Below are positions 272 through 61,782 of a stretch of 64,000 nt of DNA, piece by piece. Position numbers and translations under genes: made by a program. Position 1 is the first letter of the stretch, and each line of letters starts with the position of its first letter. This DNA comes from Bilabrum cf. latius. Lineage: Eukaryota. The notes below the pieces were generated by a model. It searched no databases. It was given only the letters and a program-made list of their open reading frames with translations, and was not told the DNA's origin. The DNA lies in NCBI GenBank assembly GCA_965178125.1, contig OZ237745.1, positions 806,001 to 870,000 of the forward strand. Reading direction: 5' to 3'.

Positions 272-3040
272 TCACAGGTGACGGGCCACCGCTGCGCGTC
301 GAAATTTGATGAGTGCTGCCCGGCGGGCCCCCATCATGGTGTCATCGAGCAAACGCAGCAGCCTGCCCACTGTTTGACGCTCTCCGGCAAATTGTCCCCG
401 CACCACGCAGCGGTACGGCCGCCTGGGCAGACGCCTGGATGTGGCAGAGGGCAGATCCGGGAGGGAGCAGGGGTTGTAGTCAGCTGGAATCTCCTCCTTG
501 ACCACTTCGTCTTTCCAATCCGCGCTCGCTAGTGCCGCCACAGCTACTTTGGGCAGGGTAGGCAGGCGCCCCCTCCAAGCAGGGGACATGGCACAGGCCA
601 GATGCAGCTCGAGAGCCGCCACCCAAGGCTGAGCCTCGGCCGCGCACGTTGGGAAATGAACGGCCTCAGCAAGGGGAACTGTGGTGCTGCAATCATCGTC
701 AGCATCATATGCACCTGCGCTTGTACCAGCACCAGTAAACGGGGCCTTGCGCTTGCCTTTCTTGCCCCGGCGGCGTCGCCTCTTGGTGCTCGTCTGGACA
801 CCTGCTGCACCAGTGGCCATGGCGCCCCTCCCGCCATGGAGCCGACCCAGTCGCAGCCTCATTGCCCCATGCAACTTGTTGAAGTCGACCTGCCTCCCTG
901 ATGCCCTGGCCCACATTCCGGGCAGGATTCCCGCGATTTCACCGACGAGAGACTTTGTGTCCGTGAACACCACGGCGGGAGGGCTAGGGATCCTCTTCAC
1001 GCTCACCCCGTTCGCAACAAAACACCACGCCGGCACTTCGATGAGGCCTACACAATCAAAATTTGGAAGCGAATTGATGCACATGGCAAGGAACCGCCCT
1101 CCCGCGGCGCTGGTGTATGGGCAGGGCGAACGGGCCGCCATCAGGGCGCCGGGGAGGAGGTACTCGGCCTCTGGGATCCACATTTTCTCGTCCGGGTCAA
1201 GCCTATTCGCCCATTCCCACTACGCGGCCGTGGATTCCTTCTCGCCGCTGAGCACGCGGTGCCTCCACACACGGACCTTGTAGAGCGCGTGTTTCTGTGC
1301 GCTCAGCAGCAGGCGCATTCCGCGGAAGAGACCATCCACGCTGCCCCGTTGCTGCTGCTGCCAGGTGCCTGCCGTCCCGTACCAAGTTGACACCCACTCG
1401 CAAGCGCCATCCGTCTCATCATTCAGTTGACTTTGGTCGTACTTGAAGTAGTCGGCCAGCACCCACTGCCTGGCCCTCTGGAAGCGGATCGCGGCTTGCA
1501 GCAGCTGGCCGAGCTGCTCGTCGATTTCAACGACTCCATCAGATGGAATCGGGAGGCGATTTTTGGATCGGAGGGACACTGTAGCCAGGGAGTGAAGGCC
1601 CATCGTGGCAGCATCCACCAGCTCCCCGATGCTTTGAATCGCTGGGAGAAGTGCCTCCTTGAGCTCTGGATTCGCCAGGCCGCTGCTCAAGTCGGCCCGC
1701 TCCTCTAGAAGCCTGCAGGCATCGTTGATTTGGCATCCCAACTTGCGAACGCACCGCATCCCGTACAATTCCAGGTGTTTAGCCAGCGGTTTAAGGCTCA
1801 AGCTCTGGGAGACGAGAACCTGCTCCAGCTGATTACGGGACTCCTTGGTGCCGCCCCCAAACATCTCTGGAGGGAAGTCAGCGCTCCACAACCAGTAAGC
1901 GCTTGCAGCGGACGCGCACAGGCGCAACCAGCGGTTAATACCGACGAGGCCCGGCCCAGGTCCAAAGCGAGCAACGTGGTCGTCCCTGTCGAGCAAGGGG
2001 ATGTGGCCCGCCTCCCTGGTGAAATTGGGAACGCTTCCGACCAGTAAACGGAGGGTGAGTTGCGCTGCTGTGCTTGATGTAGACTTTTTTGCTGCTTCCT
2101 CTTGAAGCGCGGCCGACGCCGCCGACACGATGGACCCCAGCACTTCCACGACTTTGGCTCTGTAAGCGAGCACGTGGTGCAGCTTCTCGCGGGGCTCCCT
2201 TCCCATCGCCATCATGTCGATGCCCCCCCATGCCTTGATGTGCTTGTGTCGAGAGAGAATTGGCCACACAGCGGTGTGGTACGGTCGGTACGGCAGCCGA
2301 CCAGAGGCAGCGCTGTGCGAGCCCTGGTCCACGGCGCAGCACACGTATTGCCCCTGTGAGCTTGGCACGTGGGTCCTCGGGTCAGCCCTCTCCCCGAAAG
2401 GGTGCCCGATGAGCATCCCTCCGAGATCTTTTGCCAGCAGTCCCTGCAACTCGCACGATTTCGCCCACTCCTCCACGTCGCCGGCCCGCATCTTGCTGAG
2501 CTTGCCCTCGCGTTGCGCGGTTTCCAGCCGGCCTTTGGCCTTTGAGAGCGCATCGATGCATCCCGACATCGTGGAATATTTGATGCAACGCTCGCCCATG
2601 CCGTGATCTTCAAGGTAATCTCGCTTACTTTGTGCATCGGAGTGCCCGAAGCTATCCATGGCCTGCCGAATTGCCCTGGTTGGCCCAACCGGGTCCTCAG
2701 CGATCGTCTCAAGGCTGACCATGATGCTCTTGGCCAGATCGGACTGTGCGAGCCCGCCAGATCTGCGCTGTGAGGAAAGAAAGCACGGTCAGAATGTTGG
2801 AGAGGCTGCCCGCTTAGAATACCTGGCATGTTGCTCTTCCTAGCAGCACCGCACCTCCGGCAGGTCATGCAGCGAACGCTTGCGTGGGCTCTTACACAGA
2901 TTGTGGCAGTGCTCCTGCCATGTTTCCCATGGCACTGAACCCTGGGTACGAACGTGTGTTTGTGGGCTGGGGAAACTGCGTGGTTGGATCCAGATCGAGA
3001 ATACCAGAATAATTTGTAAGGTGAGGATCCAACCGGACAT
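272..3040 (-). CDS. Hypothetical protein (~900 aa), possible N-terminal signal peptide; one short intron, 2 in-frame TAG
   Basis: ORFs 1220..2722 and 272..1183 are in the same frame, separated only by TAG (1220) and open sequence. Upstream exon 3040..~2824 (MSGWILTLQIILVFSIW...) joins via a GT..AG intron at ~2823-2762. Ends TGA at 272. No recognisable domain. Confidence 0.6.
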
Positions 3041-3116
3041 TTATAGCGTTATATTTACAAACTCGGATTTTCTTGCATGTTGGAAGGTACTCTGTTGCTG
3101 CTGTTCGCGTCGAATC

Positions 3117-3447
3117 ATGGCAGCACGAGGAATGGGACAACAAGGAAATGCTGAGATGCAGGCCATGTGAGCTTGGGCGAGTTGCAACTCACACCCGTTC
3201 ATATTGAAGTTGCACTTATTGCCAAGTGGTTTGTTTGCAGCCCACTGTCTCTTGCAGGGTTGCGTTGCAGGCTCAGCATCAGCTGTAGATGGTCATATTG
3301 AAGGCCTCTACATTCGCATTTGAGCGATGCACTACATCCAACACGACAGGCTCGCTCAGCAGCAAGGAGCAAACTTGCATTCGGGACAACGTCAACGCCT
3401 ACATGAGGACAAGATAGGCGCTTACCGGACAGGGACAAAACAATTGA
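3117..3447 (+). CDS. Small Tim (Tim8/9/10/13, zf-Tim10_DDP-like) mitochondrial IMS chaperone, 79 aa; absent from the ORF track
   Basis: Exon 3117-3166, intron 3167-3257 (GTGAGC..TTGCAG), exon 3258-3447. Translation MAARGMGQQGNAEMQAMVALQAQHQL[TAG]MVILKASTFAFERCTTSNTTGSLSSKEQTCIRDNVNAYMRTR[TAG]ALTGQGQNN-TGA matches the small Tim pattern 'C..xxLSSxEQxC...Y'. Confidence 0.7.
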
Positions 3448-3722
3448 TGCATTGATTTACATAGATTGTGAACAGAGACATTTGTGAAATTCAAGTCGAG
3501 CATGCCAATGATGGAGGATTGCACTTTCAATTGTCTCAAGGCGAATCGAGCATGCATGCCATCAGGCCACCACATTCAACTAATATAGATTAATTGTTGT
3601 TATTTGGCAACATCGTACAGGCCGTGGCCTCGCATTTGAGCTTGACTTGTTCTGCAGAAGCGGGTTCCGGTTTGAGTCGGTTCCCTGTTGTGCAACTCCC
3701 AAACTATCACAACTGGGAAGCC

Positions 3723-4787
3723 ATGCAGGCATCAAAGAAATCCGATAAGAAGCGGATGGCAGCAGCCATCGCAGAACAAGAGGACAGGCTGGCTGGATTT
3801 GGAAAGACAGAGGAAGGAAATGAGATGGAAAGCGGTGTGGCAACTGGTGTGGATGCGGACGACTACGCTGTCGGCTTGCAGCTCGACCCGGCCATGAGGA
3901 AAGCGTTGGCATCGGGATAGCACGTGAATGATGAGGAAGGGCTCCGGGAGGCCCTCGCATCGTTTGAGTAGAACGAACTGCCCTGGATCGAACGCCTTGA
4001 TGTGGTCTCGGCGAAACCTCTCGAAATTGAGGACGCCAGCGACGACTTGGCAAGGGAGCTCTTGTTTTATAACAGTGCACTAGCTGCTGTTCATGCCGCT
4101 CGGGGAGAGTTTGCCCGGCTCGGTGAGCCGTACTACCGGCCAGACGACTTTTTGGCTCAGATGCTCAAGTCGGACGACCACATGCGCAAGGTGCAGGCGA
4201 GGCTGGTCGGCGAGCAGCGCCGCATGGAGGCGGTCGAGCAGCGAAAGCGCGAAAAGGAAGCCAAGGAATTCGCAAAGCAGGCGCAGGCGGAGCGCTTGAA
4301 GGAGAAGGCAAGAGAGAGGAAGGACCAGGAGAAGGAGGTCGAGCAGTGGCGCAAGCGACGCAGGGGGCAGGGCGGGGCGGTAGGATCCGAGGACGCGGAC
4401 CGCGAGCTGGAGGACCTGCTGGAGAGGGGCCCAGGGCGGGCACAGGGCGCGGGCGCGGGCGCGGGGGCGGGACGTGGCCGGGGTCGGGGTCGGGGTGGTG
4501 CGCCCATGGCGGGAGCCAAGCGCAGGCGCAAAGACGACAAGTACGGGTTCGGTGGGGGCAAGAGGTACAGGAAGGAAAACGATTCCGGGTCCTTCGGGGA
4601 GGGAAGGTTTAGCGCCCGACAGAACAGACAGCTGCCGACTGGCGTGCGCGGCCGGGGGCGGGGTCGGGGTCGGGGTGGCGGCGGGGGCAGGGGCAGGGGC
4701 CGCGGGCGTGGTGGGGCGGGTGGGTCTAGGCCAGGCAAGGCGGCGCGTGAGGCGTCGTTTGCCCGGCGTAAGGCAGGCCGCGGGTGA
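3723..4787 (+). CDS. EBP2: rRNA-processing protein EBP2
   Basis: LPWIERLDV, DDLARELLFY, PYYRPDDFLAQMLKSDDHMRKV, KRRRKDDKYGFGG and the C-terminal RPGK motif. Two in-frame TAG (3918, ~3969) link the 3594..3920 and 4002..4787 ORFs. Start codon provisional; ends TGA. Confidence 0.92.
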
Positions 4788-4947
4788 ATGTTGATCCGAT
4801 AATTGCACATTAATTCGATCGTATTAATTGAAGAGCCGGCGCGGTTTAAATGGCTGGCACACGTAACATGCAATGAGGGCAAAGCACCTCCATAGAGGAC
4901 ATACGGTCGTGTCATCCCCTAGGGACGCCGCGTGTCCGTGTCTCGAC

Positions 4948-6922
4948 TCAGAAGGACTTGTGCAAGCGAACCATGACCACACCGCCGTCTGCCTCCACGC
5001 TCCTGGCTGCAAGGCCCTGCGACAGCTGCACCGTGCCGTTGTCGGTTCGCTGAATGACGTCACGAATCGTGGCGTTGGTCGAGGCGTCCCAACCTGTTGC
5101 CTCCTGCATGCACATGGAGTCGCATGATATGTCCGTTGAGTTCGGCCCAACGTTGAGGTAGGTCAGCACCACACTGCCGTCGGACATCAGCTTCGACCAG
5201 ACGTTTGTGCTGCCCTGTGGCGGGGGTACGCCGAGGCACAGGTCGGTGCTGGCCCGGGGCCGCACGGACCCGTCGGTTCCCACCGTCCACGTGTCGTACA
5301 CGGCCGTGCCGGCAGCTTGGTCGCAAGATGACGTGACGATGTCAAACTCCGTGGGACCACCGGCCTGTTCCGCCACGAGGCACTGCCCGTTGTACGCAGA
5401 TACGATCCGCCCCGAGGCGCTGTCGTAGCTGAACTGCAAATTGGTGTAGTTTCCGCTGCCGGCGCAGGTGGAACCGGTGTCAACGCACTCGTAACCAATC
5501 ACCTGCTGGCTGCAGTCGTCTAGGTTGAGGCACTTCTGGGTCGCCTGGTTCTGGATGTACCCGCTGGGCAGGCCCTTCGGGTTAAGGTGCCACGTCTGCT
5601 GGGAGGGCACTGCGCCGGTGATACCCGCACTGACAAGGGTGCTGTCGGATGGTGACCCGCACGGGGACAGGGTCAGCTGCACCACGTCACCAGAGGAGGG
5701 CTGCAGGTCGCCGCCTGCGATTCTCTCCCCTTGCCTCACCAGCGGGTCCTGGTTCACCGCGATCACCTCGGGGTTGGAGTAGGTCGCGAAGCGGTAGTCG
5801 CTTAGGTTGACCACGTTCTGGGACAAGATCAATGGGGAGGCCATGGTGGCCCACATGGCGAACTGGGCGCGGGACTAGAGGTTTGTAACGTGTTGCTTGC
5901 CGGATATGTCCTCGCCCAGCAGCAGACACGGATCGTTGTATGCCCCAGGGCCCGCGAATCGTCCAAGCCTGCTGTTGATGTCAATGTTTGTGAGCACGCC
6001 GTGCCAGTTGATGTCATCAGGCCCAATCCGCCAGCTCTGCGCCCCGATGGCACGACCCACGGCAGCGTACTGGGCATGCCACCCGCAGAGGTTGAAGAAC
6101 ACGTCATCGCCCCGCGTTGTGTTCCTCAGTGCCTCCGCGAACAGGTGGTACTGCTGCATGCCTACGTCCACAGAGGACGGGGCGTTGCACGAGTCGCTCT
6201 TGATGTAGTCGAACTCCATCACGTCTGCGAACTGGGTGGCATCGATGACTTCGTGGCCCTCTGCGCCGGGGCGGCCTCCGCACGTCTTGGTGCCACGGCA
6301 CGTGTCTGCGGGGGAAGCTTAACGCGGCATAGAATGGCACGCGTGGCTGTCTGGCCGACTGACATACAACCCAACACGACCTCATCTTGAATTCCAGGAC
6401 GCTAGTTTGTAACTTACATATACCACTTTTGAAGCCCATTGCGTGAAGCTTGTCGTTCATGGCTTTTACGCCCCCCGGGAACTTAGACTCGTCTGCAATT
6501 AAGGTCCCATTGGATAGGCGCTGCACGAACACGCCATCATCGAGAGACACGGTGTCATAGCCAACCTGTGCGATCATAGGACGGTTAATTCAAGCGTAGC
6601 TTGTACGCAAGATGGTATTGGGCTTCGAGGCTACGGGACAAAATTGCGCGCCCCTCTCACGTCCTTTAACCCGGACTTGAGGAAGAACTCCGCAACTTCC
6701 AGCTGCTGTTGTGCCGTTGGGTTCATCGTTGCATAATACCAACTATTGTACGCTGCGTGGAGCAATCGAAAAAAGTGACTGGCCTGGCGAGTTCCAAAGA
6801 GGGGCGGCCGTGCAACTAGAGCTGAAAGCGATCCAGGATCCACGGAACGTACCCATCGGCGGAGTCCGAAAGTTTGAGGCCGCGTGCCCCATCGAAACAA
6901 AGGACAGCAGGGAAACCAGCAT
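4948..6922 (-). CDS. Secreted alpha-galactosidase (GH27) with an inserted ricin-B lectin domain; 3 introns
   Basis: Signal peptide, then TPPM.YNSW, SLDDG, ADESKFPGG, FDYIKSDSC, SWRIGPD, GPGAYNDP, [TAG]SRAQFAMWA, NPEVIAVNQDPL. CL/QxW repeats at ~5200-5650. Introns at ~6852-6753, ~6660-6569 and ~6417-6306 (approximate). Confidence 0.88.
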
Positions 6923-7160
6923 GGCGAACTGGCTCGTCGGGTCGAGCTCCACCAACTATGCAGGGCAAGTAAATTGCTGTGCCAGCGAGCTTCATGGAAC
7001 CTTCCACTGGCACTGCGGCGAAAGATGCGACCCACGAAGAGTAACCTGGCGCATTGAATTGAAACTAGTTATATGCTAGCAAGTCAGTTGGCCCCAAGAG
7101 CCGAACGGCGTCACTGGACCACTGCACGAGCCGAGCGCACACCAGCCGACCATGCCTCGC

Positions 7161-8804
7161 TCAGTATCCACCCCCCGCACCGCCCCTCCCGCTGCCGCCC
7201 CCGACAGCCTCTGCGCCGTACCCGGCCCCCATTCCCGCAGCCTCCCCCCCGTCCCCACCCCTCGATGGGGACATCCCCTCCATCCCCTCGAAGGAGGGGG
7301 GACCCGACGGCGCCCGGGGCGCTGATCCGATCCTGCCGGCCCCAGCCCGGTCAGAAGAGCCATGGCCGCCGCCAGCCTGAGACTTGCTGCCGGCTCCCGC
7401 CCTGCTCCCCGGTGTGCCCAACCCCCCGCCAGCGGTTCCGCTACCGGCGCCGCGCGACGACGCCTTCTGGGCCGCCGACGAGTAGAGTGGATCCCGGGCC
7501 CGGATGGGCCGCGCTCGTGCCGCTAGCGCTGTCCTAACCTCGGTCTTCTTCTTGGAAAGTTCGACCGCTTGCTTCTGCTCCAGCACCGCCATCACGTTGC
7601 GGTTTCGCTGGAGCAGGCGCTTGCTGTCTTGCTCGAGCTGCTTGAGGTGCTCCCTTCTGCGCCCCTCGATGCGCTTGAGGAGCGCGGCAAGCTCGTTCTG
7701 CTGCTGCTACCTGAATTTTGCTTCCTTCTGCCTGAAGTACCCGAGCCTGCCCTCGTCCATCTTGCCGCGCTCTCGCTGCTCCAGCTGGTCGGCGATTTTC
7801 TTGATTTTCATCGCCTCGCCGTACTTTTTCTGCTTTGCGAGCATGTGCTCGCGCTTGCGCCACTCCAGCAACTCTCTGGAAAACTTTGGCGGCTTCTTCT
7901 TGAGCTCTTCGTTCAGTTCCTGCTGGTAGTCCCGGAGCGCCTGCTCGTGCTTGACGGTCATTTTCTAAATGTAGCTTCGCGCCATTTTGTCGTAGCCAGC
8001 AAGGTACTCGTCCCACTTCGCATTGAATTCCGCAAACTGCATGTTGTGTGCAATCTGCACGTCCTGCTTCTCGGCTTCATGGCGCGCCTTCAAGGCACGA
8101 AGCTACCGCTTCTCCTCCTGCTTTCGCAGCATGTCCAACTATTTCGTTGCTCGCTCCGCCTCCAAGTAGTTGCCTTCGGCCTCGCACTTCAGACGATACT
8201 CATCTAAAATCCGCAAGAATTCCATAACTTTGGGGTCGGGACCTTCATCAGGAAGTCCACCAGCGTACGAGTGGATCAACGAAACGAACTGCTCGAAGGT
8301 GATCGTGCCAACCCGATCTGGATCTATGTCCTGGAGCATATCAGCAGCTGCGATGCGTGATTCATGGAGGGATCTAGATCCAACCCGAGTGCAGCGGAAA
8401 GTGGGCCATTGTCACGATTGCAGTGAAATACGACAACATGACGGTTTCATCGCAATGCATGCTCGGCCACCGACAGAAACATCCCATCGAACTCACCGGC
8501 GGCTGGATCCTATCCAAGTTTTTCAAGTGCTGCCTCGAGGTCTCTACTCGCCATTCTGGCTGTCCCGTCAACATCGAACTGTCGGAAGACCGTGCGAAGC
8601 ATCTCGAGGTCAGCATCGCTGATGGCTGGGGCCGAGCTGCCCCTATCCTGCAAGAAAGCACGGCAAAAGGATACAGGAAGAACCCAACAATATGATTGTC
8701 GGCAGAGAAATCTTTCCAAACAGACCTTTGGCGGAGACGCAGATCGTGCTGGTGCACGCCTTGGCAAAACTTACATGTGATGCAGCTCCTCCTGCTGCGG
8801 CCAT
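7161..8804 (-). CDS. EF-hand (calmodulin/centrin-like N-terminus) plus long coiled-coil protein; 2 introns, 5 in-frame TAG
   Basis: ATG 8804, intron GTAAGT..TTGCAG, then FRQFDVDGTARM...EKLG[TAG]DP, intron, DIDPDRVGTITFEQF. A continuous coiled coil follows, read through TAG at 8139, ~8103, ~7964 and 7707. Ends TGA at 7161. Confidence 0.8.
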
Positions 8805-9042: not shown

Positions 9043-12000
9043 ATGGCTGCGTCAGGAGCATCTATGCCTATTAAGGTCCAAATCGGGGACGCAGCGTACC
9101 GAGTGCGCGTCGGCGGCTTTTCTGAACTCTTGCATGCAGTCCAGGGGTTTGCAGGAGTAGAGAGCCCCAAAATGCAGTACCAGGACTAGGACTCGGATCT
9201 CATCAATCTGTCCAGTGATCAGGAATTCGCAGAAGCTCTGAATGTTGTGGAGGAAAGCAGCATGTCCTGCTTGAAGGGTGAGACGTAGTCGTTTGTTTGA
9301 CTGCATGCCTTTTGGCGCGTTTGTAATCGCGATGGGGCAACATTTTTGATGAAAGTGTCCCAAATGAAAATTGTAGGCGTTGTGCAATTCATTTTTGTGC
9401 CTGGAAAGCTATCGTTGGTGGCTGTGACGGGTTGGACACGGGCTCTTTGTCAGGAAATTCCCGTTCCGGTTGTGCAAGATTTGCGCTTCTGTCTGTTCTG
9501 AAGGCCTACCTCTTATGAAGTGGCACACATTTATTGCTTGTGTTGCGTGCTTGCTTATTTGGGTCGCAAGCGGCCGCTGGACTAACTTGCTTTGTTGTGT
9601 CTACCCGCTTGATAGTGTTGCTCCTTTCTCCGTGTTCCGCAGTGGTCGTCAGCATCGATTCGAAGAAGAAGAAGGGCAAGCATGCATCGTCTAAGGCCAA
9701 AGCCACTGCGGATGCATTCGTACGCCGCACGATCGGGTCGATCCAGCAGGCGATCGACCGGGCGGTCGAGGACTACCGCATCACCACCGGTGGACAGGAC
9801 GTGCCTACCGCCACAATGGCGCGCGCAACCTCAGTCCTGGATTCCTGCCGACGCAAGGCAGAGAAGCTGGCGGAGAAGCTAGGGGGATCGCCCAAGCACC
9901 AGCTGCGCAACGCGTTTGCTCGTCTCTAGCAGCGGGGCGCCAGCAAGGCCGCCGCCCCTGTTCAGAAGGCAGAGTCCAAGTTCGTCAGCGACCTCGTCGA
10001 CTCTTCCGATTCGGATTCCGACCGCGATGCAGATGCAGGCAAGGCAGAGGCCGTGGATGCTGCCGCCGCAGGTGACGGCGCGTCGGCCGAAGCAGATGCG
10101 CAGCCAGAGCCGGAGGATCCCGGGGCTGCCTCCGGTGCCGCCGCCGCGTCGGACGAGACGCCAGCGTCAGCGTCAGCGTCAACCTCTGCACCGGGCCACG
10201 GCTCCATCCATCGCCTACTGAAGGGCGACCTGATCCGCCTCGTCATGACCGCGCTGCCGTCCATGGCCAACCCGATGCTGCACGCCGGACTCAAGGCCAT
10301 CGTGCGGGACCCGATGAACGCCCCGCTCATCGAGGAGCTCAAGAAGGCCGCGGAGAACAACAGCCTGGACATGCAGACCGCAGTGGAGATGGTCCGCAGC
10401 AGCGGGCGCATCCTTCCCGGCGTGCGCACGTTCGCCAAGATCGCACCCGACGTCTGCACTGCACTGCTGCCCACGCTCATCGAGCTGCTGACCCGCCTCG
10501 GTTTCGACAAAGACGAGGTCATCGCTGCCCACATGCAGGGCAGCATGGATGGGCAGGCGCCCGACGCCAAGAAGGAGAGAGAGGAGCTGTGCGAGGAGGA
10601 CGCTGCACCTGCCGAGGACCCTGTCCTGGGCTTCCTGCTCGACAGGCTGCCCCCCTTTGTCAAGATGGCGTTCCTGGGCGGCGGGCGAGGGCGCCGCGGC
10701 TGCGGCGGAGGCCGCAGGCACCACGGCGGCGCGGGAGGCGGCCGTGGAAGAGGCCGCGGTCGCGGTCGGCGCTTCGGACACGGCGGCGGCTGCGGCTGGC
10801 GCCGGTGCCGCGGCAAGGGCGACAAGGGCGCTCAGGTCGACTGCGAGGACCCTCGCTTCGAGCTCGCGATGAAGGCCCTTTTCGGCGGAGACGCCGAAGA
10901 CGAGACAGAACTCGTGCAGGAGGGTGATGATGACGCGACTGCGACCGCTGCTGCTGCCGCGCCTAGCGGCGTGGAGTCGGCGGCGAGCGGCGCGGGCTCT
11001 GGAGGTGACGAGCTCCCTGTCGGCGATGCTGCAGCAGAGGCTGCAGCTGAGGCCCAGGGAACCGGTGCCGACGAGTCCGTGGTGGCTGCGCTGATGATGC
11101 GGATGGGCCTTCCCCTGCGCGCTACGCAGGTCCGCCACCGCGGGGTCGTGTGCGACGGCTGCGGCATGGCTCCGATCATCGGCCCGCGCTTCAAGAGCGC
11201 CACCAAGAAGAACTACGACCTCTGCGCTATCTGCGAGAGGAAGGAAGCCGCCAAGAGGGGAGACGTGTACCTCAAGATCAACCACCCGGGCCAGGCGCCC
11301 GCAGGCATCAGCGTGATGCTGCGCGACGAAGCCGAGCAGGTCGGCGATGAGGCCAAGAAGGCTGGCCGCGGCGCGTGGCGCAAGCACGGCTGTGGCGCCA
11401 GTGGTCATAAGCACGGTCATGGTCACGGCCACGGTCGTCACTGGGGCGGACGCCGCCATTGCGGTGGCGGCGGCGGCGGACACTGGCGCAAGTGCGGCGG
11501 CTTGATGCGGGAGATGTTCGCCGCCATGTGCCGCAACGGCGGCATGCCAGGTCAGGAGGGCGACAAGCACGTCTACTTCGGCCCCGATGCGCGGCAGCAG
11601 GAAGAGGAGAGCGCCAGCGGAGCTGCTGCTCCCGAGCCCCAGGCCTCGGCCCCTCCTGCCTACGAGCAGGCGCAGGCAGACAAACAAGCCGAGGAGTCTG
11701 CCAGCCCCGAGGAGATCGAGATGCAGAAGGCCATCCAGGCCTCTCTTGACGCTGATGACGCCGCACGCCGCGCCAAGAAGGCGGTCGAGTCTCAGAACCT
11801 GGTTGGCACCGCTGCCGCTGTGGCTGGGGCGGTCCACGTCGCCCTTGAAGAGCAGAAGCAGAGCGCTGCCGACCGGGAGATGCCCATGATCTCGCTGCAG
11901 CCTGCAGTCGAGGCCAAGACGGAGGAGCAGGTGACGCAGGCCACCGAGGATGCCGCCGATGCCGCCGCCAGCGGTGCTGGCGCTTCTGAGAGCAAGGAGG

Positions 12001-13004
12001 CCGAGGCCGAGGCATAGCAGCAGGCGCCTGCCTCCGTGCCCATGGTGCCGCTGGCTGTCACCGGCGCGCCCGCAGCTGCCACTGCCGCTGCCGCTATGGT
12101 GATGGGCACGCCGGCCGTGGACACCAGGCCTCAGGCACGCTTCGTGTCTCAGACTACCCTCTCGCACGACCTGGAGGCCATCTACCCGGGCGTTTCAATC
12201 GTGAAGGCCTGGCGCGTGGAGAACAACGGCTCTGTCAGCTGGCCTGCCGGGTGCCGCGTGGTGAGCGTGCAGGGCGAGTCCATGGGCACGCCAGCGGAGG
12301 GCATCGTCGTGAACAGGGAGGAGGTCAGGCCCGGCAAGCAGCACGATGTCTGCCTGCGACTCACCGCGCCCCAGGAGCCCGGAAGGCACCAGGGCTACTG
12401 GCGCCTGATGACCGCCACGGGCACTCCTTTCGGACACCGTCTATGGGTGGACATCACCGTGGAGAACTCGAACCTGAGCAGCGTGATGTCTTCCATCAAG
12501 GAGAGCATCGGGCAGACTGCCGCACGCCAGCAGGAGCACGATGAGGCCGCGGAGCAGGCCCAGAAGGCCGTCGAAGAGCGCCTCGCTGCAGACAAGGCCG
12601 CTGCTGAGCAGGCAGTTGCCGCAGCTGCACAGGCCGAGGCAGACGCAGAGGCTGCCAAGCGGGCAGAGGAGACCGAGTCCGAGTCTGCTCCCGCCGCCCA
12701 GGAAGGAGGCAGTGCCGCCACTGGAGGCGCAGCGGCTGAGGAGTCAGCAGCTGATGCTGGTGCTGACGCTGATGCTGCCGCACAGACAGCCGCACAAGCG
12801 GAGGTAGATGCTGCCTTCGCCGCGCTGCAGGAGGCCACGGCCGTCCCGTCGATTGAGCTGGATGACCCAAGCTACGAGAGGTACAGGGAGCAGCTCGAGG
12901 CTCTCCACGGGATGGGCCTCAGGAACCAGCCGCTGCTGGTGCACCACCTGGACGCGCAGAAGGGTGACGTGCAGCGAGTGGTGCAGGCGCTGTGGGGCAA
13001 CTGA
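9043..13004 (+). CDS. NBR1: NBR1-like selective autophagy receptor (PB1 - ZZ - UIM - FW/NBR1 - UBA)
   Basis: Exon 1 (9043-9277) encodes PB1 (IKVQIGD...YQD[TAG]DSDLINLSSDQEFAEAL); intron 9278-9642. ZZ finger HRGVVCDGCGMAPIIGPRFKS...YDLCAIC; UIM-like EEIEMQKAIQASL; FW domain KAWRVENNGSVSWP...GYWRL...FGHRLWVDI; C-terminal UBA LEALHGMGL. TAG at 9187, 9927, 12015; ends TGA. Confidence 0.9.
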
Positions 13005-13431
13005 GGATTGATGGCCTCTTCATGGCGGGCAGCTCGATGCTGTCGATTGGTGGCGTGACGGCGGTGATGCCGTTGGGGTGTGCTCCTCAAGTCGTTGCGG
13101 TGGGCGATGGCAAGGGGTCTGAAGTTCGATTCGAAATTGGGATTGCAGTACGTTTGGTGACGGAGATGTCGCTGGTGCTCAGGTGACCATCGCGCTTGGC
13201 GCGAGCGGTTACCTTTGGAGCGTGTAGCCAGCGGCAGCTTGCACTCCATCCGGCCTGCGGCGGCGCGTCCAGTTTTGGTGCGCTGCTGAAATACAAGATA
13301 CAAAATATCAACAAATAATTCGGTTTCTCCGACCTCAACTCAGCCACAACCACGGAATGCAGTGCATCGCTTGTGGCATTCGGAATGTGGATCGGATTCG
13401 ATGCAACACCATCGACTCGACATACTATCGA

Positions 13432-18400: not shown

Positions 18401-18879
18401 GCAATAGCTTCGAGGCCGTGGCACACATCTTTTGGGGCTTTGTGGCCCAATGAATACGTCTACAATGGACTAACCACACCCTTGGAGGTCAATCTATCCA
18501 ACAGCCCTGGATTACACTTCGAATAAAAGTCGTTTGCTGCTTGCTCAACACTTTTGCGAACAGCAACTGCATATTTAAGGGCGTCTTCGCTGGTAGCATC
18601 CGACATAAACCCGCGGATACCTGCACTCAAAGCTCTAGCTGAAGATAGACCACTAGCTTCAGCAGGTACCATATTCCGCCCACACATTTCTACCATCGAG
18701 TTAGGGCTATAACCTGCTTCGCCAACTAGCATGTGTCGAACCTTCGGATGCGGTTCGACGAACTGGAATCGGGAAACCGAACGCAGTGCGTTCCCGGCGA
18801 GCCCGCACTGGCCTTCCTTGGGGTCCCGATCGGGGTCCGGGGTGGCCTTGGGCTTTGCCAGCTAGAAGTGATCACACAT
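15448..18879 (-). CDS. TTC39/IML2-like TPR protein (~1140 aa), intronless, ~11 in-frame TAG
   Basis: Nine track ORFs (18460..18732 to 15448..15717) share one frame separated only by TAG. Segments YLQGALSFRSS, ILRIVGLAPDRTGALRTL, LRLFPHGGMYSYLAGYTARRAGD and C-terminal KYDFDK resemble TTC39/IML2. Ends TGA. Confidence 0.65.
16501..16564. repeat. (CCAGCA)n hexamer microsatellite, ~10 copies, encoding a Gly-Ala run on the minus strand
   Basis: Direct reading of the ccagca tandem array inside the TTC39-like CDS. Confidence 0.95.
17802..17880. repeat. 27-bp-scale in-frame tandem repeat (gcgcccgcaagcgccgatgagcct-type, ~3 copies) encoding AGSSALAG repeats
   Basis: Repeated aagcgccgatgagcctgcgc units, translated AGSSALVG/AGSSALAG in the minus-strand ORF. 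Unit length is approximate. Confidence 0.75.
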
Positions 18880-18999
18880 GGGTCATTTACAAGTGAATTG
18901 CAATGGAAGTTAGACACGTACTAAGGTTTCTTCAAGAAGGCACTGTGCACCGCGATACAGTCAGGGACAACAGAATCCACACTGCCACTCGAACAGTCC

Positions 19000-20270: not shown

Positions 20271-20420
20271 GTTGCTTGCTTATTCCGTTCACGCGTGTAC
20301 CTGGAACGTTCGAAGAGACTCAACTGAAGCCTGTGCTCGCAGAGACAAATAGACGCTGCTGCAGAACTAAATATAAAAATACAACTGATCGCTTTTGCTG
20401 AGCTGTTATTAGCCGGACGG

Positions 20421-36921: not shown

Positions 36922-37052
36922 GTGTTCCAGATACTGACATGAAAACGTTTGGATCGCTGCCCGCGAAACTGCACGGTACAAATTCAAAAAGCAGACACTG
37001 GCTTTGTGGAACCTTCCCACTGCCTGGTCGTGCCTGGGATGAAAGAAAGGAG

Positions 37053-40817: not shown

Positions 40818-40956
40818 GAATATCTCAGTAATTGAATATTTGGTGCGGAATATGGAACCCATGGGTCAACGGAACCGCCGTCGCCACAGATAGCGTGCTG
40901 TTTGCGCGGAGCACGGCGGATACCGGGAGCCTTCTCTAGTCCATAGGTTGGATAGT

Positions 40957-49947: not shown

Positions 49948-50974
49948 GACACATCCCCTCGATAGCTTTTCTGCTGATTTCTGGCCTACGCTGTCAGGAC
50001 AACACCTGGTCGGGTCGAAATCTGCCGCCTCTGGTCCCTTCTGCCTCTTCTTCCGAAGATTTTTGAACACCGAAAGGATGTTTACATGCTTCTTAGATCG
50101 ATGTGCGCCATCGCCTGCTTCAACGGGCCAGGTTCGGGGGGAGCTGATATTTTGTGGACTCAACTCAAAAGCGCACGCTATCGCGAAGAAACATCTGGAA
50201 CGAGGGCCCGGGACCTACCAGACTTCACGCTTCAGCTGCAATGGCCTAAACCACCTAAAGCTCCACCCTGGGGACCCATTTCCCCTTGGGGAGCGTCAGC
50301 ATTCACGTTCCCTCCGGTGCTCGCTGCCGGCACCCCGTCCTGCTGCCCGTTCTGAGCCAACCCTGCCTTGACGTTGGCGATCGCCACGGCGAGTTTGTTG
50401 TTTTCGGCTGCCCCTACAGCCAGGCTGGCAAAGTCCTGCCGGACAAGTATTGTAGTGTGCGATTTATGAATTCACGAACAAGAAGGGTGGGCAGTTCAGG
50501 GGTTAAAAAACGTGAAAGTGGAGAGAGAACTGGAATCGAAGCACAACTTCCCAACTACAACGATTGTGGAGAGAGAGAATTATCTACAAGTTCGAGACGC
50601 GATACCCTAGAATTTCGCGATTCAATGGTTGGAGACTCTCCCAATGGAGAGGATCTGGTCCAGACACCCGGCGGGGTCATCTGGTTGGCAAGGTGGATAG
50701 CAAGGGGAGACACAGATTGGGCAGGTCGAGGGTTGTGTTGTTGGGTTAGGCCTATTGGGCTGAATCATGAAGCGCTCCGAACGATCGGAGCGCCTCCAGA
50801 CAGTGATCGGATCACTTCTTCCAAGATGATGAGCCACGTCACCTCCAGGCTCTGAGTGCAGGGAGTCCCGTTGTTAGCACCATGAAGCGAGGGATAGTGA
50901 ACACCATCCCACTTGTACATGCCCTTGGCAAGACCAACCCCGCGCTTGTGCATTTGCTGCCCGGCCCAAGGTGC

Positions 50975-53900
50975 GAACGTTCGATTTGCTGCAACCCATG
51001 GATCACGGGCGCTCAGATCAACTCGTGCTCACCAAGACTTTGAGCAATACACCAGACTCCGTGTTTGCGCATTGCCGACTTTATATCTTAAGGTTGGCTT
51101 TGATTACTTCATCCGGTGCTCTCGGTCGACTGTTCGACTGATCACGGCCATGGGTGGAGTTGCTGGCATCAAGAGCTCTCGCGTCGCTCCCAGCCCGGGC
51201 CGGCAACAAAAACTACATAGCGATGCTGCCTCGCGCAATATGGCCAATATCGAGCACACACGGCCCAGACAGGGCATATGCCTGGGATTCTAGAGCCAAT
51301 CCGACGAGCAGGCGTTCGTGAAATACCAGCGTCATCGAGATGCATCCAGCTTCCGGCACTCAATCATCGTTGCTGCCGCATCTTCTCTCATCATTGCCGT
51401 ATACGAGGTAGCTGCACTACAGTCACCATGGATGCCAGCTGGTAGAGTGGCTATGCTAGCTGCTTCTCTGGCTTTCTTGGCGGTGGGAGCGAGGTGTCAC
51501 ATGTTCGTGCCGAGCTGCTTCCACGCTCCGATCATAGCTTTTCTAGCCATCGAGACAATTCTGATGTACTATCAATGGGAAATGTCGCTCCTGCACTACT
51601 CGGAGTCGGCTGCTACGGCTAGGCTGTACGATGCCTTCCTGGGCGGCCACACAACCTACTGGGCAACCACCACAGGCTACTGGTCGATGCTCACATTGCA
51701 CAACAGCGGGCTTCGATTCTACTGGAGCAATATCATTGCAGCACTCAGGCTGCTGCCGCTGGTAGCCATGCCACTTCTCAACATGTGGGCTCTTGAAGGC
51801 AGGGCCATGCCAGAGCAGAGATGGGGGTACTGGGCGCTCATCCTCAGCGTGCTCGGCATTGGCAGTGCAAAGCTGTACTTCCAGGAGCGGTCGCAACGGT
51901 CGGAGTTCATTCAGCTCCATAGGCTTGTTGGTGACAGTCAGAGGAGAGACAGCCTGTCGAAAAGCAGTGAGACGTTGCTATTGCTCAAGCGTGCCGGCCC
52001 GTCGATCAGCTGCCGCGTGCGCCGCCTACGCCACAAGAGACGTCGTGCATCCATATCCCACCAGATCCATCTCTTCTTCTTCGCAGTCCTTCCACAGACT
52101 ATCGCCGCTGCACTGCAAGAGAATGCCATGGTGACCCGCCTTGCCGCAATGCCCGCCCGAGAGGTCGCGGCTGGCTCGCCACGCTCAGAAGATGCAGTGC
52201 ACGCGAGCCAGAGTTAGCTCCCGCAACGAAGCAAGAGCAGTAGAGCATCATATCGAGTGGAAGCATCCATCGAGGATGACTCGGCCAAAGCGCCGAATAA
52301 TCTTCCAGCTGTGCCTCGCCAGCCAGGCGTGAACGAGGCACACCACGACAGTGCGGCGTCCTCGCCGGGAGCGGATGAAAGGTCGGGGATTGGGATCCGC
52401 AGCGGCAGCAATTCGCCCGTGCCATCTGCTGCAGCCATGCGAGGCCATCGTCATTCTATTGAAGCCTCGACACGCGACGGCAGCAGCCGGCGGAGCAAGT
52501 CTCCCTCAAAGCGGTTGGAGAAAATGATATCTAGCAGATCGCTGCCCTCCAGTTACGGCCAGCAATCTGGAAGGAATGCCAGTCGCCAACACGTAGCTGG
52601 GCTTGACAGCAGCAGGTGGGCAGACCGGGAGTCACCAGACCACACCGGGGTAGCTAGCGCTCGAGCTTCAAGTCCGGCCAGCCATGATCTGCAGGCAGCG
52701 CATCACTAGTTGCTAGCTGCAGGAGGCAGCACCGGTCCGACGATGCACGCGCGAGACCGGGGATAGTCGCACGAGGTGCTGTCGAGCGAGTCACCGCTCA
52801 CGAGCTAGGCAGGTGGACCTACAGCGACAGCTACCGAGTTCGGGCTCGAGACTCCGATCACCTATCAGCATGAAAGCGTCGCCATCATGTTCATTCATAT
52901 CGTGAACTTGAAGGATATCGTGGCGGGTCGCGATGGAGTGCTGCTCGTGCAGGAGCTCAACCGGCTGCTCGTTGAGATGGACAGGATTGTGGATGATAAC
53001 CGGGCGTACAAGATCATGGCAATCGCTGACATGTACATGTGCGTCGCGGGCGACTCGATCGCAACCACCACGAAGGTGCCTGGGGAGAATCACGTGCTCC
53101 AGCTATGCAAGGCCGCCCTCAGAGTCATGCAGTTGGTGAACACGGGCGAGTTCCAGGTGGAAGGCGTGCCTCTTCTGCTGAAGATCGGCATCAACTGCGG
53201 GCCCGTAGCATCGGGTGTGATCGGCAGGAAGACCTTGAACTATCACGTGTTTGGCGATGCTGTGAATGTGGCGTCCCGCATGTGCTCCACCTCAGAGCCG
53301 GGGTGCATTCAGCTCAGCTCTGATGCCGCGCAATGCCTCGAACAGCATGGAGGGTGGCACCTGCTGTTATGGGAGCGCGGGGAGATCATGGTGAAAGGCA
53401 AGGGGCTCATGCAGACGTACTGGCTTCCAACTGACATAGAATTCCCGTCAACTATGGCTTAGGTCCCGTTCGTGGACGAGTCCTCAGGCAGTTCTGTTGA
53501 CTACCCATGGATGAAGTCCGTTGGCGATCTGGGTATCATCGCCAAGCTGGAGGCCTCCTTACGAAAGGAGGCAGGCCTTTTCGTGCGTGGTACTCTATCG
53601 TTCACAGTGACAAGCTTTGAGCTCATGCAGAGCCTGGTACGAATAGCAAGTCAAAGCACCGACTCGGAACAAAGAATCCGCATCGGAAACACAGACAAGG
53701 CGAGCGAGGAGTGGGCGTTTATGGTCGAGTCGCAGTACACGCACTACAAGGCGCGGAAGCAGCGCGACGAAGTGCTGCGCAGCACGCTGCTCCACTTTAT
53801 TGCTAGCGTTGTGATTCTATTCGTGTACCACATGGCCTCGGATGCTGGCCCAGAGGCAGAAGATCTACATCAGCAAAGGGTGGCCAGTGGCAGCCAGATT

Positions 53901-55821
53901 GTTGCTGGGGTTGTGCTTGCAATCAGCACCGCGGTATTGTTTGGATATCGGCGCAGCGAGTCCCAAGGCTGTCACGGGAGTGGCAGACCCGCTGGCGCGC
54001 AAGGCAGCAGTAGACGTACCGACCGCCGCGTGTCGCCCAAGCTCGCCTCTCGGGGCTCGAACAAGAGACTACGTAGGAGCCAGTGCGAGTTCTGCTGCGG
54101 TTCGCCATGGTTCATGGGACAGAGAGGCCCTCAGGGCATTCTCGAGTCCCCATCGACGGTCATCTCGATAGTCGCCACTTTGCTCGCGCTGGTCGCGACT
54201 GCTGTCATGCACGTGGCAGGGTCTGTCGATGTCATTCTGGAGGCTGTGCTCGCCGTCCATATGGTGGTCCTCGTGGCGCGTTACCGAGGCCTGCTCGGGT
54301 CCACCATGGCCTTCACTGCGTCATGCATTGGTGTCGCAGCGTCAATCACGAACGGTGACATGAGGCAGATATCGCTGGTGGCAATCGTGCTGTTCACCAG
54401 CTCGACCACCGTAGCAACGCAATGCTACGAGGCGGAAGTACAGACGCGCCAAAAGTTCATCATTTCGTTTACCGTAAAGAAATAGAAGGGAAACTGTCAG
54501 GCGCTGCTCCGCAACATGCTCCCTTCAGGGTACCACGTGGAGCGCCTGATGCGGGGCGACGATGTGGTGGAGCAGCTCGACAACGTCGTGATGCTCTACT
54601 CTGACATCGTGGGATTCACCCCGCTGGCGGCCAAGCTGCAGCCACATCAGCTCATCACGCTGCTCCACGACCTGTACGAGGGCTTTGACAACAAGCTGGA
54701 GAAGTCAAGCAGCAGCCTTTACAAGATGGAAACGATCGGTGACGCATTCATCGTGTTGGGAGGGCTTCGTGCATCATCAGAAGCTGACAGGAGCCGTACA
54801 ACAGCTGAGCGCAAACGCAGGGAGAGCTCGATCACTGCTTCAATGGATAGATTCAAGCAGAGCGTCTCGCTGGGAAGCTCGCTCGCTGCCAGCGGTGCAG
54901 TGGTTCAGCGAGGCGGACAGCAGGACGGCACAGCAGCCGGTCAATCCCACGATACGTTTCGTGACACAGCTTCGGGGCCTAGCACGAACGGTGCCGTCTC
55001 GAGCGACGACGCCCACAACGTGCCAACAGCGGCTGTGCGAGCTACAGAAGAGCCACAGGATGAAGCGGATGCCGAGTCGGCAGCCGGGTCGGTAGTGGTG
55101 TGTGTTGGGCCGGGAGAATCCAACGCGCTGGAGCTGGCACCGATGCAGGCTGGCGGGCACGGTGAAGGTCGCTTGGATGAGCAGGCAAAGGGACGGCGCA
55201 ACGAGAGCATCAGCCAGACGGGAGGAACTGCGATGGGCCGAGTTGCTGAGCATGATGAGCAAGCCTCTAGTGAGGGGGCGAACCGGGACAAGGAGCCTGT
55301 GGCAGTCCAGCAACAGCGACCACGAACGGCTCCTGCCTCGGGCCGGGCTGCCCTTATTGCGCAAGACGCGCGAGCTATCGCTAAGTTTGCCACAGATATG
55401 CTGGCCGTGATTGCTGGCATCCGGGTCAAGTACGACTTGCCCGAATTCGACATGCGGATCGGCATCCACGTTGGACCTGCCGTGGGCGGCATCTTGGGCG
55501 AGTCGAGGCCCAGGTACTTCGTGTGGGGGGAGCACACAACTAGAACCGAGGCCCTCGAGTCCAAATGTCCACCGGGGCAGATCCTAGTATCGGATGCGGC
55601 AGCAAGGCTGATCGAGCGTGCGTCAAGCAGCGGAGCTGCCTTTGACAACGAGACCGTGGTGACCGTTGGCAGCCACTCCATGGTGGCCCACCAGCTCCGG
55701 CGGGTTGGCAGCCGCGAGGTGGAGCGAGAGCCAGTGGACATTCCTGAGATGAGCTCCAGCCCAGAGCCCGATGCAGGCCCCGTGCAGCTGCCAAGGGTAA
55801 GCCCGCTGCAGGCATGAATGC
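50975..55821. repeat. Inverted segmental duplication of ~26458-32010
   Basis: Homology starts ~175 bp upstream of the ATG (gcgaacgttcgattt / ctcagatcaactcg) and stops 4-5 bp after the TGA (gcaggcatgaatgc). Confidence 0.92.
51150..55817 (+). CDS. Class III nucleotidyl cyclase copy B (~1555 aa), near-identical inverted paralog of 26462-31837; 7 in-frame TAG
   Basis: Same motifs and near-identical peptide sequence to copy A. TAG at 51291, 52215, 52707, ~52764, ~52806, 53460 and 54483; ends TGA. Confidence 0.9.
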
Positions 55822-59749: not shown

Positions 59750-60063
59750 GAAGCAATTCGAGCGCGGCACTATCGGTATCGAGTTCGGTTGAAACGAGCA
59801 CGTACGCTGTTTCGAGCCGTTCGTCGCCCGTCCGTCCTCAGCGCAACGAAGGTTCGTTGAGGGTTCCTCGCAGCAAAGCTTCGCTGCGGGCGGCGCATTC
59901 GCGTGGACCTGCCCGTCGCACATTCGCTATTTGGACTTCGGAACGGTAGCAGCCGCCTGCGTTTTGAGCACACGCGCCAGGAGCGATTGCGGCGACGCAC
60001 CGCGACGCACCACCCGCGGTGGTCGATATAAGCTGGATTGGCGCTGGCGAAACAGCGCCGGCC

Positions 60064-61782
60064 ATGAGTTCAGATTCCAGTGGAATTTCCGCAGAAGACT
60101 TGGCCATTCTAAAGGCAGAGGCGGCAGCCTGGCGGCGAATGTGTGCCGTGCAAGTGCAGGCAGCCACGGTGCCGAGCACAGCAGCCGCCGCCGCCGGATC
60201 CTCCGCTCCCGCGACGTCCCGCCCGAGCTCTACTTCAACCGCCGACGTCGTCACCGTCAACGTTGGTGGCAAGCTATTTACCACAACCAGATCCACCCTG
60301 TGCCATTTCGAGGGGTCCAGGCTGGAGGCGATGTTCTCGGGGCGCTGGGACGCTTCGATGCCCAGAGACAGAGCAGGAAACCCGTTCATTGATCGCGACC
60401 CGGAGTTCTTCGGCGTCATTCTCAACATGCTTCGCGATTTTGACGCGGCGGGCGGGTCTTTCGCCAGCCAGGCCCAGGAAGAGGCGGCCGCGGCTGCCTC
60501 GCTGCTGCACCACCGGGCGGCGAGCGGCCCGGCGAGCGGCCCGGCGGCGGCGGCGGCGGAGCTCTTCGCCTCTTCCCCCGGTGGAGAGGAAGCACCAAGG
60601 TCGTCGTCCCACCGGCTGCCGCTCCCCGAGACTTTCTTTGAAACGGTCGCTCCGACCGGCGAGGCGGGCGCCCCGCCGGACGGAGCGGGAGCAGGATCCG
60701 AAGAAGAGGACCGCCGGGACCGCCGCCCCGATTCCTCCGGGCTCGGGTTTGGGGAGGAGGAGGGCGCGTCCGTGACGATCGACGTGCCCCCGGAGGAGCG
60801 CGGGCGGTTCGTTCGCGAGCTCGATTGGTACCACCTGACCGAGCACGTCTACGGCTCCCCGTTCCCCTCGAGCAACGTGCTGAGCAGGGACGCCCGACTC
60901 CAGCTGTTCCACATGTTTGACGAAACAGCGCACGCCGGGGAGCAGTGGGAGCTGCTGTACCAGGCGAGCGCGCACGGACTGACCCCGGGTGCGTTCCACG
61001 GCCGGTGCGACGACGAAAGCGTGGGCCCGACGGTCGTGCTCATCCGCACGGAGTTGGACTGCGTGTTTGGGGGCTACTATGACGGCTCCTGGTCGCCCGC
61101 TCGTCACACCAACCTGGCAAAGTCCAGGTCGTTTCTGTTCATCTTTGAGACGCTGCGCGGGTCTTGCGCCCACAAGCTGCGGGTGGACGCGGACCCCGCC
61201 GGCAAGCCGCTCGTGAGCCAAGACCCGGGGTTTGGGCCGCTCTTCGGGGTCTACGTCCCCCAAAAGCGGCCGTCTGTGTGGGGTGCGGCCGGCGACCGCC
61301 GCGCAGGGTACCGCCGCGACGCCGGCGAGTGGCAGCAGCAGCAGCAGCAGCAGCAGCACGCCGGCGGAGGCGGGACCGGGCCCGCGGGGCCGGCTGGCGG
61401 CGTCGGGCCGCCGCGGGCCGATGTTCGAGGCGGGGCCGGCGGCATTGGAGGGGACCACCAACGGGGGGGGGAGGAGGAGGATGCGGGGGAGGGAATCCTT
61501 GTCGGTGGCGACGAGGACGAGGAGCCGATGCAAATCAAGAACGCAATCTGCGCGATTCACAGCGTGAACCCGAAGATAGGGTTTGCGACGCTCGGCACGC
61601 CAGGCTGCCCGTACGAGTCTCCGCCAGGCTGGACCGACTGCAGGCACATCACTGGAACCGCGTCTGGCCAGTTTACCATCCAGGAGATTGAGGTGTTCGC
61701 GGTGCGCGGGACTCTTGCAAGGAAAGCGCAGGGATCTGACGAGGGAAGCCCCGGTAGCGTCGTCGTCGACGACGGGAGATGA
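60064..61782 (+). CDS. KCTD-type BTB/POZ + TLDc domain protein
   Basis: VVTVNVGGKLFTTTRSTLC...SRLEAMFSGRW...FIDRDPEFFGVILNMLR; TLDc WELLYQASAHG...FHGRCD..GPTVVLI...VFGGY...SFLF...FTIQEIEVF. No internal TAG; ends TGA. Confidence 0.9.
   Translation: MSSDSSGISAEDLAILKAEAAAWRRMCAVQVQAATVPSTAAAAAGSSAPATSRPSSTSTADVVTVNVGGKLFTTTRSTLCHFEGSRLEAMFSGRWDASMPRDRAGNPFIDRDPEFFGVILNMLRDFDAAGGSFASQAQEEAAAAASLLHHRAASGPASGPAAAAAELFASSPGGEEAPRSSSHRLPLPETFFETVAPTGEAGAPPDGAGAGSEEEDRRDRRPDSSGLGFGEEEGASVTIDVPPEERGRFVRELDWYHLTEHVYGSPFPSSNVLSRDARLQLFHMFDETAHAGEQWELLYQASAHGLTPGAFHGRCDDESVGPTVVLIRTELDCVFGGYYDGSWSPARHTNLAKSRSFLFIFETLRGSCAHKLRVDADPAGKPLVSQDPGFGPLFGVYVPQKRPSVWGAAGDRRAGYRRDAGEWQQQQQQQQHAGGGGTGPAGPAGGVGPPRADVRGGAGGIGGDHQRGGEEEDAGEGILVGGDEDEEPMQIKNAICAIHSVNPKIGFATLGTPGCPYESPPGWTDCRHITGTASGQFTIQEIEVFAVRGTLARKAQGSDEGSPGSVVVDDGR

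Follow-up and report, generated by a model that had tools for sequence, protein, structure and literature searches.

A UAG=glutamine code with UGA-dominated termination in a GC-rich, probably bicosoecid-like eukaryotic lineage

A nuclear code in which UAG, and not UAA, specifies an amino acid is described here from a 64,000-nucleotide stretch of contig OZ237745.1 (assembly GCA_965178125.1, positions 806,001 to 870,000), hereafter the window, whose positions are counted from its first letter. UAG is used in frame throughout the window and is, from the alignments, clearly best read as glutamine, UAA is absent from the coding frames and UGA closes every gene traced. We place the window among the UAG=Gln-only codes, as a member from a new GC-rich lineage whose genes end predominantly in UGA. 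It is probable that UAG alone has been reassigned and that the release factor eRF1 still reads UAA, which is rarely chosen as a stop in this GC-rich genome. The uncoupling of UAA from UAG, and with it a departure from translation table 6 (UAR=Gln, that is, both UAA and UAG), had been proposed in a first-pass annotation of the same DNA, and it is borne out by TAG at conserved glutamine positions and in at least 21 of 23 genes, with TAA absent. Beyond that annotation are the residue assigned to UAG, glutamine, and the fact that several lineages are already known to have UAG-only codes.

In-frame TAG and the residue it specifies

The codon count covered 16,413 in-frame codons in 23 coding segments of 21 genes (Table 1) and returned 96 TAG, 188 CAA and 511 CAG, with neither TAA nor TGA among them; the rarest sense codon, TTA, was found 30 times. 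TAG makes up 12% of the glutamine codons. The earlier remarks that CAA and TAG are both common and that TAA is seen neither as sense nor as stop agree with these counts and with the 0 of 23 gene ends reported below. The long open reading frames (ORFs) were taken from a TGA-to-TGA list and would not have been broken by TAA; since TGA was the sole stop in choosing them, the lack of TAA was not built into the selection. The background rate of TAA, measured in the five remaining frames of these genes, is 1.89 per 1000 codons, by which the 11,350 training codons should contain about 21 by chance. As a synonym for glutamine, TAA would be expected 35 times by the CAA:CAG ratio (CAA = 27%) and 14.5 times by TTA:TTG, the most A-averse codon pair, against none observed (Poisson P <1e-6). 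When coding signal was required on both sides of the triplet, 47 of 970 TAG passed, compared with 0 of 354 TAA and 0 of 1,611 TGA; the thresholds of this flank test had been recalibrated, an initial stricter set having recovered nothing, TAG included. As a sense codon TAA has no usable frequency in the window, for which the ordinary table 6 code is ruled out.

That the standard code is in use and the in-frame TAG codons are an artefact of pseudogenes, sequencing errors or missed introns is scarcely credible. The same frames that hold the 96 TAG, spread over at least 21 genes, hold no TAA and no TGA, the TAGs align one-for-one with single glutamines of homologues with the length unchanged, and in independently assembled relatives the standard-code ORFs are interrupted at these positions too. 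No support for an artefact was found in the window.

The residue was read from alignments of an EF-hand protein and the G-protein beta subunit (G-beta) with 111-120 homologues. Glutamine is the commonest residue at six of the eight TAG sites and reaches 91-100% at three of them. The four TAG columns of the EF-hand gene hold glutamine in 119, 109, 86 and 63 of 120 homologues. For G-beta, where 111 of 120 matches were kept by a length of 300-400 amino acids, the first column is glutamine in 111/111 and in the second it is the commonest residue (38/111), and the third is mainly glycine (35) with glutamine in 15, but holds glutamine in the two closest bicosoecid-type sequences and in a fragment of 96% identity. 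Summed over the eight sites the log-likelihood is -9.9 for glutamine, -26.3 for lysine and -27.6 for arginine, glutamine leading any other residue by at least 16 units. A second source was provided by relatives of the window organism, compared at the protein level only, whose short standard-code ORFs are present in public protein sets as fragments of 77-99% identity. Glutamine stands in these fragments at five of eight window TAG positions, and the fragments end at window codons TAG (three), CAG (two), GAG (two) and AAA (one). In the APC1-like gene they carry glutamine at four TAG sites and leucine at one, and two of them end exactly at two further TAGs; five near-identical fragments of the 1,144-residue protein carry glutamate and leucine at two TAG sites, and one fragment ends at a window TAG. 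From these fragments it appears that standard-code gene callers cut the proteins of the source organism at every TAG.

Several observations weigh against glutamine. The fourth G-beta column (19745-19743, minus strand) is arginine in 107 of 111 homologues and conflicts outright; it is either a real change from arginine to glutamine or a hint of some ambiguity. The remaining three of the eight positions covered by relatives' fragments are leucine (two) and glutamate (one), just 2 of 58 distant homologues carry glutamine at a poorly conserved TAG site, and in alignments with PDB entries single TAG sites face E, E, Q and Q in the alpha-galactosidase and T, K, T and E in Naa30. The PDB alignments for TAG sites of alpha-galactosidase, Naa30 and Ebp2 give mixed residues and are weakly informative. 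In Iotanema, 22 of 28 hyperconserved UAG positions are reported as glutamine, and the exceptions described there are of like kind to those of the window (PMC5304391). Glutamine is clearly the best reading of TAG on this comparative evidence. The two cyclase paralogues were also tried as a guide to the residue and were uninformative, TAG being paired with TTG, AAG, GAG, CAG and TCG.

Two features of the gene at 15448-18882 were recorded separately. A relative's 40-residue fragment (88% identity) ends at ORF residue 103, where the window has AAA, a codon that a single substitution would turn into TAA and two into TAG; a contig end could simply be what cuts the fragment. The gene also holds an (Ala-Gly)n tract and, at 16732-16727 on the minus strand, adjacent TAG-TAG followed by CAA, giving Gln-Gln-Gln.

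Gene ends and the status of UAA

With TAG read as sense and TAA and TGA as stops, all 23 gene ends listed in the first-pass annotation were TGA, as it had claimed, closing ORFs of 79 to 2,237 codons, each supported by its coding score, a Pfam match or homologues. Twenty-two of these ORFs rank among the best coding scores of the window; the remaining one (3208-3447, 79 codons) has a doubtful score, but matches Pfam zf-Tim10_DDP above the cut-off (E 8.5e-7). Among the 598 ORFs of at least 60 codons, the 93 that end in TAA have a top score of 17.9, which belongs to a frame antisense to the 272-2788 gene, whereas 25 ending in TGA score 30-310. Two of these 25 were rejected as gene ends, one being antisense to the NBR1-like gene and the other having its TGA inside a GTGAGA splice donor. 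No TAA-ending ORF with coding signal was found in the intergenic gaps. Four stop-like TAA triplets were rejected, one because it falls within the first intron of the beta-helix gene and three because they are weak (5.4-6.4) and antisense to or overlapping better-supported genes; the TAA bounding the ORF of the last alpha-galactosidase exon falls in an intron. At three of the TGA stops the context is G-TGA-G, which resembles a GTGAG splice donor.

No gene in the window requires TAG or TAA as its end. The stretch from the last TAG to the TGA had a positive coding score in all 19 genes scored in the correct frame, and the TGA of G-beta, reached in step with the homologues, coincides with their C-terminal end. 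Both results speak against UAG having a dual meaning, sense in general and terminator in some genes. The 17 of 970 TAG triplets with coding signal upstream only would be compatible with such a use, but the upstream-only test also catches splice donors and antisense frames, and dual meaning is considered very improbable. In the context-dependent codes of Condylostoma and Blastocrithidia the reassigned codon also terminates, unlike in the window, where no gene end calls for it.

How firmly 0 of 23 speaks about UAA depends on composition. The noncoding DNA has 52% G+C with 7.2 TAA and 15.4 TGA per 1000, a TAA share of 32%; coding DNA, taken over all its frames, gives 14%. With TAA in free use as a stop, the probability of 0/23 would be about 1.4e-4 at the 32% share and about 0.03 at the 14% share, which is suggestive of TAA being disfavoured as a terminator beyond simple composition and counts against UAA as a stop retained in the ordinary way; UAA is the preferred stop in the published UAG-only codes for which stop usage is reported in PMC5304391 and PMC11687900. 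The 95% upper bound on TAA stop usage from 0/23 is about 12%. The result fits both a rare stop and an unassigned codon, the two options offered in the first-pass annotation, and a claim that UAA never terminates would have no more than 23 genes behind it. In the 30 codons after each stop, TAA occurred 7, 5 and 5 times in the three frames, showing no frame enrichment in what is a low-power test.

The same figures bear on a more radical alternative, in which eRF1 is UGA-specific, the only additional tRNA-Gln has a CUA anticodon and UAA is vacant, neither decoded nor released, with UGA as the single stop. We regard this as possible, though a good deal less probable than retention of UAA by eRF1. 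It is favoured by TGA at 23 of 23 ends, as is seen where eRF1 recognises UGA alone, by no TAA in 16,413 codons against 30 for TTA, by the low probability of 0/23 on composition and by the lack of enrichment of in-frame TAA after the stops. To our knowledge no unassigned codon has been documented in a eukaryotic nuclear code, and with 23 genes TAA stops at a few percent would look alike. The AT-rich TARA ciliates, moreover, keep their disfavoured UGA at <4% of genes (PMC11687900). In its full form, with 62 sense codons, one stop (UGA) and one triplet read by neither tRNA nor eRF1, the proposal is unlikely; if true, the organism would be a living intermediate, among stramenopiles, on the codon-capture or unassigned-codon route from the standard code to UAR=Gln.

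A single TAA in the window is ambiguous, and its reading depends on the introns. G-beta has two, at 20025-19916 (110 nt) and 19862-19764 (99 nt), both GT..AG and leaving a spliced coding sequence of 1,062 nt, and introns are present in the beta-helix and alpha-galactosidase genes too; intron 1 of the beta-helix gene (about 36839-36729) holds TAA triplets. The donors are GTGAGA, GTAAGC, GTATGG, GTGAGA and GTGACC. The acceptor ...CGCAG is common to four of four defined or proposed introns (two in G-beta, one in the beta-helix gene and the candidate at 13183-13603), and CGCAG makes up 7.7% of the NNCAG pentamers in the window. In the histidine phosphatase gene the 5′ end (about 13,500-13,603, plus strand) has an in-frame ATG with one TAA between it and the catalytic RHGDR motif. 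This TAA could be read as a sense codon, which would go against UAA having been kept out of the reassignment. An alternative start exists in a 17-nt exon 1 (13166-13182) that joins in phase with the ...CCCCGCAG acceptor at 13603, and the candidate 421-nt intron 13183-13603 would therefore make the TAA intronic.

Readthrough at this position is among the points in favour of a table 6 code in which TAA also means glutamine and has become nearly extinct through GC pressure or a scarce tRNA(UUA), with none left in 64 kb. UAG=Gln with UGA as the sole observed stop is the table 6 pattern, and A-ending codons are disfavoured in the window (third-position A 15.8%, TTA:TTG 17:143). Against it stand the shortfall of 14.5-35 expected TAA codons (Poisson P <1e-6), and the position of the candidate TAA upstream of the CGCAG-type acceptor with a phase-correct exon 1 available. 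Such a near-extinct sense UAA is judged improbable.

Mechanism and comparison with known codes

For reassignment of UAG alone, with UAA still read by eRF1, the components would be a tRNA-Gln with anticodon CUA reading UAG, and an eRF1 whose recognition of UAG is weakened and which would offer no effective competition there. A CUA anticodon cannot pair with UAA, and UAG and UAA can therefore differ in meaning. UAA would still be recognised by eRF1 and be kept out of ORFs because of that recognition, and it would seldom or never serve as terminator owing to the GC-rich composition and perhaps to a weakened efficiency of eRF1 at UAR codons. A CUA anticodon and an altered eRF1, both also suggested in the first-pass annotation, have been argued for in Iotanema, in the rhizarian exLh (PMC5304391) and in ciliates (PMC11687900). 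The window holds no tRNA gene and no match to a suppressor tRNA by ARAGORN and Rfam, and neither eRF1 nor GlnRS was identified among the window ORFs scanned; this mechanism is therefore one that we infer.

Joint reassignment of UAA and UAG is the usual course, as the first-pass annotation had stated and in agreement with what is described in PMC5304391 and PMC11687900. The same two sources list UAG-only codes with glutamine in Iotanema spirale, Protocruzia tuzeti, Hartmannula sinica and Trochilia petrani, with leucine in the rhizarian from Lygus hesperus (exLh) and three TARA ciliate genomes, and with serine in Scotinosphaera. Closest to the window is I. spirale (Fornicata), in which UAG only is reassigned to glutamine, UAA is non-sense-coding, UAG is never a terminator, and a tRNA-Gln(CUA) is predicted together with an altered eRF1, as proposed here (PMC5304391). 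It differs in that UAA stands at 104 of 119 scored gene ends and UGA at 15, compared with 0 and 23 of 23 in the window, and in being a metamonad, whereas the window is stramenopile-like and consists of genomic DNA with introns (PMC5304391). H. sinica, T. petrani and P. tuzeti likewise use UAG=Gln without reassignment of UAA (PMC11687900). UAG is reported in 78-84% of the genes of these ciliates and is found in at least 21 of 23 here, and the TAG share of glutamine codons is 18-32% compared with 12% (PMC11687900). The order of the stops is reversed: UAA closes 87-92% and UGA 8-13% of genes in H. sinica and T. petrani, and across five reassigned ciliates UAA ends 87-98% and UGA at most 13% (PMC11687900). 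The window is also the mirror image of the AT-rich TARA ciliates with UGA at <4% of gene ends (PMC11687900). Its lineage is separate from those of these UAG-only codes at about the rank of a supergroup. In exLh, the TARA phyllopharyngean ciliates (Leu) and Scotinosphaera (Ser), UAG is uncoupled from UAA as in the window, with a different residue; UAA is described as the dominant stop in exLh and the TARA ciliates and as retained as a stop in Scotinosphaera (PMC5304391, PMC11687900).

Codes that separate UAG from UAA are rare and bear on whether tRNA wobble and eRF1 tie the two codons together mechanistically. Many ciliates, hexamitin diplomonads, some ulvophytes, oxymonads and an aphelid use table 6, which the window resembles in UAG=Gln and in UGA as the sole observed terminator (23/23) and from which it departs in that TAA is not sense, 0 being found where 14-35 would be expected. 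No stramenopile with a changed nuclear code was found in the full-text literature searched, the coverage of which is incomplete. With the window, UAG-only codes would gain a separate origin in a further major lineage, the stramenopiles, and also their first GC-rich example and the first case in which UGA and not UAA carries termination. Being both GC-rich and UGA-terminating, it therefore tests if UAA stays a stop by mechanism or only by AT-rich composition. Since relatives at 83-99% protein identity are present in public protein sets, tRNA genes and eRF1 should be recoverable.

Source and gene content of the window

The window comes from the nuclear genome of a eukaryote with compact, GC-rich DNA and short introns. 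Its G+C content is 60% over 64 kb, and when TAG is read as sense long ORFs open on both strands (2,237, 1,861, 1,638, 1,444, 1,203, 1,161 and 1,144 codons), the coding share being about 83% by an approximate, hand-drawn gene map. Pfam identifies eukaryotic genes for a G-protein beta subunit, an APC1-like protein, Ebp2, an NBR1-like protein, two adenylate/guanylate cyclases and an RNase III domain, and names further an alpha-galactosidase, a branch-2 histidine phosphatase, BTB+TLDc, TM2-domain and ankyrin-repeat proteins, a Naa30-like acetyltransferase, a beta-helix protein and a small Tim. A bacterial or phage origin with TAG recoding was considered and is ruled out by the eukaryotic genes (G-beta, APC1, Ebp2, NBR1, small Tim) and the GT-AG introns; a scan of bacterial and archaeal genome contigs with the C-terminal half of the APC1-like protein gave 19 pattern matches, none of which was confirmed. 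The best named match of G-beta is Bicosoecida sp. CB-2014 (59% identity), followed by oomycetes and ochrophytes, and that of the EF-hand protein is Cafeteria roenbergensis (65%). In a FastTree tree of the EF-hand protein the window adjoins Cafeteria on long branches, which is taken as a hint only. By these similarities the source lineage is probably a bicosoecid-like stramenopile.

Table 1. Genes and open reading frames of the window, with in-frame TAG codons and stops.
Feature	Position	Strand	Remarks
ORF, 838 codons, without Pfam family	272..2788	-	1 TAG; TGA at 272-274; coding score 115
Small Tim, last exon (zf-Tim10_DDP)	3208..3447	+	2 TAG; TGA at 3445-3447
Ebp2 rRNA-processing protein	3594..4787	+	2 TAG; TGA stop
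Alpha-galactosidase + ricin domain, at least 4 exons	4948..7100	-	last exon 4948-6318 with 1 TAG; TGA 4948-4950
EF-hand/coiled-coil protein	7161..8411	-	4 TAG; TGA stop
NBR1-like protein (ZZ, N_BRCA1_IG)	9519..13004	+	2 TAG; TGA stop
Histidine phosphatase (branch 2)	13166..15356	+	1 TAG; TGA stop; ambiguous 5′ end
ORF, 1,144 codons, without Pfam family	15448..18882	-	12 TAG including TAG-TAG pair; TGA stop
G-protein beta subunit	19000..20270	-	exons 20270-20026, 19915-19863, 19763-19000; 4 TAG; TGA stop
RNase III domain protein	20328..22502	+	12 TAG; TGA stop
Coiled-coil/LRR protein, 1,203 codons	22590..26201	-	8 TAG; TGA stop
Adenylate/guanylate cyclase, copy 1	26462..32047	-	10 TAG; TGA stop
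ORF, 312 codons, probably 2 exons, without Pfam family	31996..32934	+	5 TAG in ORF; TGA stop
Lys/Glu-rich ORF, 190 codons	33446..34018	-	2 TAG; TGA stop, TAA directly after
Secreted right-handed beta-helix protein, at least 3 exons	34529..36925	-	3 TAG, one after signal peptide; TGA 34529-34531
Multi-pass membrane protein ORF	36918..37871	+	2 TAG; TGA stop
TM2-domain gene, at least 2 exons in different frames	38178..40548	-	at least 2 TAG in last exon; TGA stop
Ankyrin-repeat protein	40756..41709	+	3 TAG in ORF; TGA stop
Naa30-like GNAT acetyltransferase	41892..42836	-	3 TAG in ORF; TGA stop
APC1-like protein, 2,237 codons	43234..49947	+	15 TAG; TGA stop
Adenylate/guanylate cyclase, copy 2 (inverted duplicate)	50901..55817	+	7 TAG; TGA stop
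Low-complexity ORF, 1,444 codons	55916..60250	-	8 TAG in ORF; TGA stop
BTB + TLDc protein	59968..61782	+	0 TAG; TGA stop

The genes are closely packed. Stop codons lie 87-98 nt apart in the convergent pairs 15356/15448, 22502/22590 and 55817/55916, and presumed start codons lie about 130-150 nt apart in the divergent pairs 20270/20421, 36925/37053 and 59923/60064. The region 56000-64000 has 68% G+C and several frames open at once, and an ORF of 739 codons with a coding score of 106 (61783-63999, plus strand) continues past the window end. The cyclase genes form an inverted duplication (26458-31976, minus strand, and 51011-55821, plus strand) beginning at the stop codon and taking in the 5′ leader, with 94-97% DNA identity in four blocks and indels between them; at the protein level 1,433 of 1,622 aligned residues are identical (88%). 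Arg-Gly repeats are present at the C-terminal end of several proteins, e.g. Ebp2 and the TM2-domain gene product.

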